Positions 1-2,353 of a stretch of 2,353 nt of DNA are shown here, piece after piece. The translations under genes and the position numbers were made by a program. How positions within the stretch are numbered: the stretch's first letter is position 1; every line of letters begins with the position of its first letter. The stretch lies in assembly GCF_024298765.1 (NCBI RefSeq), contig NZ_CP101219.1. One strand, 5' to 3'. Under the pieces are notes generated by a model. That model searched no databases. It was not told the DNA's origin and saw nothing but the letters and a program-made list of their open reading frames with translations. Source of the DNA: Escherichia coli. GTDB lineage: Bacteria; Pseudomonadota; Gammaproteobacteria; Enterobacterales; Enterobacteriaceae.

Positions 1-120
1 TGTCAGTCCTTCGTTCTTCGCTCGCCGTCTGATTTCGCTTGCGAGTCTGTTATTTACTCTAAGGGTGATAACCTTAGTTCTCTGCCGTACTTCTGAACCA
101 CTACGTTTATTTTTAGCCAT
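1..120 (-). CDS. N-terminal segment of an RHH-domain protein, candidate MbeC/MobC-like mobilisation accessory protein. Start codon at 120-118; the frame runs off the window start.
   Basis: Minus-strand translation from ATG(120-118) gives MAKNKRSGSEVRQRTKVITLRVNNRLASEIRRRAKNEGLT, with no stop before position 1. KVITLRV followed by NNRLASEIRRRAKNEG is the beta-strand plus first helix of a ribbon-helix-helix fold. A GGAGAG Shine-Dalgarno (plus-strand ctctcc, 129-134) sits 8 nt upstream of the ATG. Not in the ORF track because it is truncated at the window edge. Confidence 0.6.
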   Translation of the reverse strand, partial: MAKNKRSGSEVRQRTKVITLRVNNRLASEIRRRAKNEGLT

Positions 121-140
121 CGCAATGACTCTCCATTTTG

Positions 141-240
141 CACGTTTGGGGTGTCGGGGCTTGCCCTGACAGGAGGTATTCTCATGCAAGCGAATGTATT
201 CGCGGTATGACGAATACACATCCTGTCCCATTTTCCGCTA
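141..240. other. Candidate origin of transfer (oriT/bom-like) of the ColE1/MOBP5(HEN) type, upstream of the RHH gene start.
   Basis: GGGGTGTCGGGGC at 148-160 matches, from my recollection, the GGGTGTCGGGGC motif next to the bom/nic region of pBR322 and pUC backbones. It is followed by a GGGCttGCCC hairpin and nested inverted repeats GCGAATgtATTCGC (189-202) and GTATTCG-N9-CGAATAC (195-217). Its position just upstream of an MbeC-like gene matches ColE1-type MOB module layout. The nick site cannot be located by eye. Confidence 0.35.
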
Positions 241-1367: not shown

Positions 1368-1396
1368 TTGACATCTGGAGATTTTTTCTTGATAGT
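1368..1396 (+). promoter_or_regulatory. Candidate sigma70 promoter of rep: -35 TTGACA (1368-1373), 17-bp spacer, -10 GATAGT (1391-1396).
   Basis: Consensus -35 hexamer; the -10 matches TATAAT at 4 of 6 positions; ideal 17-bp spacing; correctly placed about 40 bp upstream of the rep ATG. Confidence 0.45.
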
Positions 1397-1434: not shown

Positions 1435-1968
1435 ATGAGCAAGGCTTTAAACAAACGATTTAGTGAAAATCCTTTCATCAAAGATTTGATAATTCCTGTA
1501 AAAAACAAACAAGTAAGAATATCGCGATTAGGAGAAGATAATAACATAATGATTAACCAATCAACTGGAGAGGTTTTAGGGGGAACTTCGGTAGTAACTT
1601 ATAAAAAAGTTGATAGTGATAATTTTATTAAATTGTTTACCCAAAATATAAAATTGGCTTTCGAGTTAACACAAGCTGGTCAAAAAGCACTATTTGTTTT
1701 ATTTTGGGCAGTACAAAATAAAACAAATAATGATCTAGTCTTATTAGATCAATACACGCTAAATGATTTTATAAATGAAAACAAAGGTTTAACTATGTCC
1801 CTTCCAACATTCAAACGTGGGCTTGGGGAGTTGGTAAAATCACAAATATTAGCAATGAATAAGCGAAAGGGATTTTATTATATAAATCCTAATTTTGTTT
1901 TTAATGGTGATAGAGTTGCATTCACAACAGTTCTTGAAATGAATAAATCGAGTCATAAAGATAAATGA
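1435..1968 (+). CDS. repL: Plasmid replication protein, RepL family (177 aa).
   Basis: Intact ORF with ATG and Shine-Dalgarno, low-GC codon usage. C-terminal pattern ...LPTFKRGLGELVKSQILAMNKRKGFYYINPNFVFNGD resembles the winged-helix region and the conserved NP...GD motif I recall from RepL proteins such as staphylococcal pSN2 RepL. Palindromic operators and a promoter lie directly upstream. Family assignment is from recalled similarity, not a search. Confidence 0.6.
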   Translation: MSKALNKRFSENPFIKDLIIPVKNKQVRISRLGEDNNIMINQSTGEVLGGTSVVTYKKVDSDNFIKLFTQNIKLAFELTQAGQKALFVLFWAVQNKTNNDLVLLDQYTLNDFINENKGLTMSLPTFKRGLGELVKSQILAMNKRKGFYYINPNFVFNGDRVAFTTVLEMNKSSHKDK

Positions 1969-1978
1969 CAATGTATTA

Positions 1979-2018
1979 AAACCCGCCAAATTGGAATTTC
2001 AAATTTATTGGCGGGTTT
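1979..2018. terminator. Candidate bidirectional intrinsic terminator between the convergent rep and RHH genes.
   Basis: Perfect 11-bp stem AAACCCGCCAA (1979-1989) / TTGGCGGGTTT (2008-2018) with an 18-nt AT-rich loop. It is flanked by T/A-rich sequence on both strands, 11 nt after the rep stop and 30 nt after the RHH gene stop. The loop is longer than typical, hence moderate confidence. Confidence 0.5.
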
Positions 2019-2047
2019 AATATTCGTGACGGCTAGCGCCGAAGATT

Positions 2048-2353
2048 TTAGCTAAATGTGTTTGAGCCAGGATATTTATTTTTATGATGCCGTTTTATTA
2101 TTTTTATTTCCTGTTTTAATAAATCCATTTGATTATATATATCAGAAATTCGCTTCGTTACTATTTTCATTTCATCGCAAAGTAAAATTATTTTATGCAT
2201 CACCTCGAGGTACTCTTTATCCTTCGGCCGCTTTCCCTTATCAAATAATTTCTTCTGCATCCGACCAAGTCGGATTAATTCATATAAATACCTGGAAGGT
2301 ACGCGCTGTTTTATTTCATTATTTAAACTTGCCGTCCTGATATATTCTGAAAT
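2048..2353 (-). CDS. C-terminal segment of the same RHH protein if the molecule is circular. The frame is open from the window end (2353) to the TAA stop at 2050-2048.
   Basis: The reverse complement of 2261-2353 translates without a stop as ISEYIRTASLNNEIKQRVPSRYLYELIRLGR and continues into the 70-aa ORF listed at 2048..2260. Codon boundaries land exactly on 2353 and on position 1, so ...EGLT (ending at position 1) joins ISEYIRTASL (starting at 2353) in frame. This completes the second RHH helix (GLT-ISEYIR). Combined protein is 141 aa. Confidence 0.5.
   Translation of the reverse strand: MSEYIRTASLNNEIKQRVPSRYLYELIRLGRMQKKLFDKGKRPKDKEYLEVMHKIILLCDEMKIVTKRISDIYNQMDLLKQEIKIIKRHHKNKYPGSNTFS

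Follow-up and report, generated by a model that had tools for sequence, protein, structure and literature searches.

A hairpin between the convergent rep and nikA-like genes of a 2.35-kb Escherichia coli plasmid: a probable two-way terminator of the rep cassette

Plasmid organization and gene content

The stretch of DNA analysed here in its entirety (2,353 bases; hereafter the window) is a complete circular plasmid of Escherichia coli, since the nikA-like gene continues across its two ends, and it is matched end to end by whole small E. coli plasmids. The window covers 100% of plasmids of 2.46 kb at 92-93% identity, and pGF4-H, a circular plasmid of 2,354 bp, shows 99.4% identity to it across the region of interest. 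The window plasmid is of the Col(MG828) type to which PLSDB assigns these relatives, and 883 PLSDB records match it at least in part.

The initiator gene, rep, belongs to the RepL family (Table 1), and its counterpart in the 99%-identical plasmid pGF4-H is annotated RepL. On the opposite strand the nikA-like gene runs from position 120 to 1 and then, across the circular junction, from 2353 to 2048. This mobilisation-accessory gene specifies a ribbon-helix-helix protein of 141 aa; what the earlier note had called simply an RHH gene thus acquires a family, the NikA-like proteins [PF21983, E 9.5e-16], and in relatives the gene is labelled mobA/NikA ("MobA"). The two genes converge. As that note had stated, the interval 1969-2047 lies between their stop codons, the rep stop ending at 1968 and the nikA stop beginning at 2048, and it corresponds exactly to the 79-nt spacer.

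Local BLAST comparisons reveal a common module consisting of nikA, its upstream region and the GC island (~2053/2064-2353, 1-653 and 650-1123), which is 84-95% identical in other plasmids. The stretch from ~1123 to ~2053-2064 is swapped in other plasmids for unrelated cassettes, the right boundary falling in the last codons of nikA. Since this stretch includes rep and the entire spacer, the hairpin described below belongs to the rep cassette. To judge by its title, as cited in PMC6807383, Moran & Hall 2017 (pCERC7) reportedly dealt with a NikA plasmid group in which variable segments adjoin a multimer resolution site.

The promoters feeding the rep and nikA transcripts are consensus matches only. 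The one upstream of rep (TTGACA-17-GATAGT) is presumed to be the source of the plus-strand transcript which meets the hairpin. Our search of the literature on this plasmid family found no paper on the transcription of these plasmids.

Table 1. Features of the plasmid and their coordinates in the window
Feature	Position	Strand	Free energy (kcal/mol)	Basis
nikA-like gene, 5' part (ATG 120-118, 40 codons)	1-120	-		translation; Pfam
Hairpin outside the GC island	124-173		-16.9	50-nt sliding fold
Hairpin upstream of nikA	169-218		-19.2	50-nt sliding fold
Promoter-like TTGACA-17-GATAGT, upstream of rep among palindromic iteron-like sites	1368-1396	+		consensus scan; repeats; consensus match only
rep, RepL-family initiator, 177 aa (stop TGA 1966-1968)	1435-1968	+		ORF list; Pfam PF05732 RepL, E 1.3e-9
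19-bp AT-rich inverted repeat inside rep	1684-1733		-18.0/-16.4	50-nt sliding fold
Intergenic hairpin, for comparison	1972-2021		-17.0/-16.8	50-nt sliding fold
Left A/T stem extension, GTATTAAA paired, A1981 bulged	1973-1981			MFE structures
Left arm, GC-rich core CCCGCCAA	1982-1989			exact inverted repeat; folds
18-nt loop ATTGGAATTTCAAATTTA	1990-2007			folds
Right arm, GC-rich core TTGGCGGG	2008-2015			exact inverted repeat; folds
Right T/A extension TTTAATAT	2016-2023			MFE structures
Minor 4-bp mini-hairpin CGGC-TAGC-GCCG, between main hairpin and nikA stop	2030-2041			folds
nikA-like gene, 3' part (101 codons + stop 2050-2048)	2048-2353	-		translation; Pfam NikA-like PF21983

Other repeats on the plasmid

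Palindromic iteron-like sites (GGTATCAG-N4/5-TGATACC) and ATCTAAC(G/A)TATCA half-repeats are found at 1228-1262, 1333-1352 and 1400-1419, where they flank the promoter-like sequence just upstream of the rep start. They likely represent binding sites for Rep, or else an autoregulation or origin region. The inverted repeat at 169-218 (GCGAATGTATTCGC.../...GACGAATACA) precedes the start of nikA by 50-100 nt, which makes it a candidate oriT repeat of the NikA-like protein.

Within the rep ORF there is a 19-bp AT-rich inverted repeat (1688-1732; 95% complementary, 7-nt loop) which at -18.0 kcal/mol on the minus strand matches the intergenic hairpin in stability and which a scan found terminator-like on that strand. 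Upstream of it, at 1904-1877 on the minus strand, is a promoter-like site with 10/12 matches. The repeat could bound an antisense RNA to rep of ~170 nt. Another possibility is an AT-rich origin element within the gene, of the kind reported for phage P1 RepL/oriL (PMC9948254). It occurs in the sister lineage described below as well; among RepL genes that are 50-60% identical no comparable hairpin was found as the strongest in-ORF fold.

The hairpin in the spacer

The spacer contains a hairpin (1973-2023) composed of a GC core, an 18-nt loop and an A/T-extended stem (Table 1). The core is a perfect 8-bp repeat with 6 G-C pairs, and none of 200 dinucleotide shuffles of the window holds such a repeat. 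For the 96-nt region around it the RNA minimum free energy is -25.9 kcal/mol on the plus strand (z -3.2) and -25.4 kcal/mol on the minus strand (z -4.1), with 0 of 200 shuffles folding as stably on either strand; folded as single-stranded DNA, the region gives z -4.2 on both strands. The hairpin alone, with its A/U extension, reaches -18.7 (+) and -17.7 (-) kcal/mol, and the core only -12.5 (+) and -12.8 (-). The exact repeat and folds surpassing all 200 shuffles bear out the GC-stem hairpin that had been noted between the two genes, and its flanks are, as had also been noted, A/T-rich on both sides (TATTAAAA upstream, TTTAATATT downstream).

The A-tract (TATTAAAA) mirrors the T-tract (TTTAATAT) around the stem. 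For the plus (rep) transcript 1973-1981 would act as the A-tract and 2016-2023 as the U-tract; for the minus transcript 2016-2023 would provide the A-tract, and 1973-1981 would template the U-tract. Four weak pairs inside the loop, two of them G-U, may cut it to 8 nt, on the plus strand only. The mini-hairpin next to the nikA stop is probably incidental, because a G-to-A change in one relative (L003) breaks its pairing.

It had further been claimed that no other strong hairpin exists outside the GC island. This did not hold, since a 50-nt sliding fold finds equal or stabler ones at three places, upstream of nikA, inside rep and at 124-173 (Table 1). The intergenic hairpin is the sole GC-stemmed one in the AT-rich half of the plasmid, and the sole one between two gene ends. 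The window contains one copy of it.

Comparison with intrinsic and bidirectional terminators

With regard to the features by which factor-independent terminators are recognized, the predicted RNA fold has a GC-rich stem, and its position is suitable, the GC core beginning 13 nt past the rep stop and 32 nt past the nikA stop. The loop is not short: either strand forms one of 18 nt, whereas Term-seq surveys put the median at 4 nt in every species and the TransTermHP definition allows 3-13 nt (PMC12207403). The tails, UUUAAUAUU on the plus and UUUUAAUA on the minus strand, each carry 5 U in the first 8 positions with only 3 (+) or 4 (-) of them consecutive, and their weighted U-tail scores are 2.95 and 3.41, respectively.

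A consensus terminator scan of the window did not call the hairpin, because the loop limit of the scan is 8. A rough d'Aubenton-Carafa-type discriminant was negative on both strands (-28 for plus, -19 for minus); these values combine modern energies with a formula calibrated on older tables and are indicative only, and we take them solely as a sign of non-canonical geometry. Two features expected of bidirectional terminators are present, namely convergent transcription units and an A-tract mirroring the U-tract, upstream A-tracts mirrored by U-tracts being a signature of this class (PMC12207403).

Membership of an Rfam family was considered and rejected. Scanning all 2,353 bases at E<=1 gave nothing at the gathering threshold, and the only two matches over the hairpin, P9 (23.3 bits, threshold 43) and ncr1175 (21.4 bits, threshold 60), look like generic matches to a terminator stem.

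Relatives carrying the same hairpin

The same hairpin was collected from 5 PLSDB records, 7 plasmids from 5,426 complete E. coli genomes and 2 metagenome contigs, the last found in one metagenome scan anchored on the 3' end of rep. The pooled set comprises 8 sequences (6 distinct) with 4 hairpin variants. Within the E. coli genomes 7 plasmids and 0 chromosomal sites carried the hairpin; with this distribution, and a single copy in the window, a dispersed REP/BIME-like palindrome was discarded as an identity.

Over the 8 sequences, 99% of the stem cells are paired. Compensatory covariation was not seen (0 double-sided changes), in a set whose 4 variants give little statistical power. Only two substitutions affect the stem, a C-to-T at position 1986 in the left core arm and an A-to-G at the stem base, and both yield G-U pairs in rep-sense RNA and A-C mismatches in nikA-sense RNA. 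Because of these mismatches the hairpin of the sister lineage (L001, L003, L004, L014 and L015) is weakened on the minus strand, with -18.6 to -20.7 kcal/mol on the plus strand and -10.4 to -11.5 kcal/mol on the minus strand. The window, pGF4-H and pVTB448v-6 share a symmetric hairpin of about -18 per strand.

Between the two lineages 5 of the 18 nt of the loop have changed versus 2 of the ~34 nt of the stem, the length of the loop being 18 in both. Such an excess of loop changes favours selection on pairing over selection on a loop motif. Bidirectionality itself is not clearly under selection, because the minus-strand hairpin of the sister lineage drops to the values just given.

Unrelated hairpins at the same position

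Every related plasmid examined in which a cassette converges on nikA has a different hairpin of the A-tract/stem/T-tract type in the spacer. In pSCU-172-7 (L002) and in L020 the spacer is only 33 nt long and almost all hairpin (AAATAAGGTCTTTTT/AAAAAGACCTTATTT; z -5.5 on the plus and -5.0 on the minus strand). That of p537-20_3 (L008) measures 41 nt (ATAAACCCCGCTC...GAGCAGGGTTTAT; z -6.5 and -5.9). Plasmid pSTEC2018_607-o (L005) carries ATAGGTCTTTAAA...GAAGACCTAT (z -2.4 and -0.25), and pSCU-106-10 (L018) and pLH10-b-1-j (L019) carry GCCGATATA...TATCGGC. RepL genes convergent on genes other than nikA are also followed by a hairpin of this type, as in L006 (AAAAAAGCAGC-TTTTA-GCTGCTTTTTT), L013 and the Bartonella record L007.

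These positional analogues resemble the window in that a cassette gene converges on nikA and the short spacer is filled by the hairpin, but in neither stem nor loop is their sequence related to that of the window hairpin. Only L008 has the left-arm motif AAACCC(C)GC; when it is aligned with the window hairpin the left arm and the upstream flank align and the remainder does not. Most analogues have short loops (4-8 nt) and a more canonical look than the window hairpin. Strand bias among them is inconsistent, L005 and L013 being stronger in the rep sense and L008 in the nikA sense.

A structure which is kept while its sequence is replaced fits a terminator and not a sequence-specific binding site. 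We regard this positional recurrence as the main and strongest support for reading the hairpin as a terminator.

Plasmids with other gene orders were also noted. Where a co-directional gene comes after RepL, as in L009 and L010 [NZ_CP075862.1, NZ_CP086479.1], rep is nonetheless followed by a strong hairpin, such as CAGTCGAACAAAA...TTTTGTTCGACTG at -21 kcal/mol. L011, in which a co-directional ORF begins after a spacer of 13 nt, has no hairpin there. In L018 [NZ_CP053244.1] and L019 [NZ_CP100540.1] rep is immediately followed by an extra ORF of ~240-270 aa, annotated as a hypothetical protein, which abuts the stop of rep or overlaps it; the terminator-like hairpin and nikA come after this ORF.

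Proposed function

We think it probable that the hairpin at 1973-2023 is a factor-independent terminator and 3'-end hairpin of rep which, as a near-perfect palindrome with an A-run on one side and a T-run on the other, would in this plasmid double as the terminator of the nikA-like gene on the opposite strand. To take its parts separately, termination of the rep transcripts is quite likely, and the chances that the hairpin acts in both directions would seem slightly better than even. Its service to nikA is less well supported than that to rep.

Polymerase starting from the rep promoter would transcribe CCCGCCAA...UUGGCGGG and then the tail UUUAAUAUU. The nascent hairpin, 13 nt past the rep stop, would pause the elongation complex and destabilise it, and the transcript would end in the U-rich stretch. 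Polymerase arriving from nikA would yield the complementary hairpin followed by UUUUAAUA. One presumed consequence is that rep transcription would be kept from antisense passage through nikA and oriT; another is that nikA transcription would be kept from antisense passage through rep, sparing Rep dosage and copy number. Hairpin-induced pausing and head-on collision of polymerases may add to termination, as in E. coli bidirectional terminators, and the hairpin would presumably also shield both mRNA 3' ends from exonucleases. With so long a loop and such short U-runs, termination in either direction by itself probably has no more than moderate efficiency.

The earlier proposal that one structure terminates both transcripts is partly supported, more so on the rep side than on the other: it has in its favour the convergent genes, the stability on both strands, the mirrored tracts and the positional analogues, and against it the 18-nt loop, the short U-runs and the weak nikA-sense hairpin in the sister lineage. 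Given this last weakness, and given that the element lies inside the exchangeable rep cassette, the hairpin may primarily be the terminator of rep, its service to nikA being secondary.

Alternative explanations

Carried further, the same observations would point to a terminator of rep only, whose palindromic symmetry has no significance, the transcripts of nikA either ending at another site or reading through. We consider this unlikely. The shared nikA/oriT/GC-island module ends at ~2053-2064, that is, at the nikA stop, and so leaves the hairpin to the rep cassette; the two transitions of the sister lineage both spare the rep-sense RNA (-18.6 to -20.7 versus -10.4 to -11.5 kcal/mol), and the analogues in L005 and L013 are weaker on the minus strand too. 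However, the probability that two transitions should both hit one strand by chance is ~25%, the analogue of L008 is stronger in the nikA sense, and both strands of the hairpin of the window plasmid fold equally well. Furthermore, the nikA transcript must stop before it enters rep in the antisense direction, and the spacer offers no other candidate.

According to work from the Liu laboratory (bioRxiv 10.1101/2022.10.23.513370), certain hairpins located between convergent genes of E. coli do not resemble classic intrinsic terminators; they make polymerases pause and, via head-on and trailing collisions, fix transcript 3' ends precisely in both directions. One might suppose, following the Ju/Wang/Liu model, that our hairpin only traps polymerases and that their release depends on head-on and trailing collisions of polymerases from the two convergent units. 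Its 18-nt loop, its short U-runs, its negative discriminant and its absence from the calls of the consensus scan would suit such a role, the E. coli bidirectional terminators between convergent genes being unlike intrinsic terminators and yet requiring an RNA hairpin. The U-rich tails, which have 5 T among 8 bases on each strand, speak against it, as do the analogues of L006, L002 and L013, which resemble canonical intrinsic terminators; the collision model moreover needs active transcription from the rep and nikA sides alike. We rate it as improbable, somewhat below a terminator of rep only. By analogy with the E. coli elements the hairpin could work in a mixed intrinsic/collision mode. There is a low probability that the short U-runs and a loop conserved at 18 nt denote a collision-only pause site or, alternatively, that the hairpin doubles as the priming signal of an enterobacterial replicon of the RepL type. 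Were the collision-only reading true, this minimal plasmid would tie initiator expression, and with it copy number, to the expression of its mobilisation gene.

It is very unlikely that the element acts at the DNA level or is functionless, be it as a protein-binding palindrome, a scar of cassette exchange or a chance palindrome. The hairpin lies ~30-50 bp from the exchange boundary of the rep cassette, and the loop has the same length in both lineages. Chance is opposed by the shuffles, which never reproduce the hairpin, and a specific binding sequence by cassettes unrelated in sequence which all have a hairpin at this place, pointing to a function at the level of structure. In sequence, the stem bears no relation to the iteron-like sites. 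A Xer (cer/dif-like) site at the cassette boundary was also rejected, none occurring above chance (no cer match; 4 matches to the XerD arm versus 2.65 expected).

Among other identities, an IHF-like site in the loop was inspected by eye and discarded as a poor match to WATCAANNNNTTR.

Least probable of all, in our opinion, is a single-strand origin or priming signal for the lagging strand, which presupposes that this RepL plasmid replicates by rolling circle as does the staphylococcal pSN2 family with its ssoA. The hairpin is non-coding and folds strongly as single-stranded DNA (z -4.2). The single-strand origin ssoA is a large imperfect palindrome bearing the motifs RSB and CS-6 (TAGCGT), and the TAGCG in the loop of the mini-hairpin at 2030-2041 presumably resembles the latter (5/6 match), but this mini-hairpin is disrupted in L003 and our hairpin, with 51 nt in a 79-nt spacer, is much smaller than the palindromes of ssoA. 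Staphylococcal plasmids of the RepL/pSN2 family are rolling-circle plasmids with dso and ssoA (PMC5703833). However, a distant blastn search of 72,556 PLSDB plasmids, staphylococcal ones included, returned nothing beyond 5 relatives from E. coli and gave no match resembling an sso; related plasmids have merely a 33-41-nt spacer with a simple terminator-like hairpin; the symmetry of the hairpin is at odds with the orientation-specific nature of an sso; and the palindromic iteron-like sites at the rep promoter suggest control of the theta type.

Significance

A two-way terminator of the rep cassette is, among these readings, the one we prefer, and the hairpin is then a fresh instance of a well-known kind of element which opens no new question. 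It would mark the transcript boundaries in a very small and widespread family of cryptic E. coli plasmids, and its practical value is small. Every exchangeable rep cassette would come equipped with a terminator that the fixed nikA module can use as well, in keeping with a modular design of these plasmids. With its 51 nt and its two-way symmetry the hairpin is a candidate part for probing how loop length bears on bidirectional termination.

Comparison with known systems

The window element shares with ssoA (palA) that it is a non-coding fold on a plasmid with a RepL-family initiator, with TAGCG nearby. It differs in being much smaller and symmetrical, in having no detectable sequence similarity, and in not being kept at this position in relatives.

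The tonB/P14 terminator of E. coli is a bidirectional Rho-independent terminator between convergent genes, and a whole class of bidirectional terminators was reportedly mapped by SEnd-seq (Ju et al. 2019). This class is discussed in bioRxiv 10.1101/2022.10.23.513370 and PMC12207403. The features which the window has in common with bidirectional Rho-independent terminators are one palindromic GC-stem hairpin between convergent stops, an A-run mirroring a T-run and, in this plasmid, equal stability on both strands. Unlike them, the window hairpin has a loop of 18 nt where 4 is typical and U-runs of 3-4, and it forms part of an exchangeable rep cassette on a plasmid of 2.35 kb.
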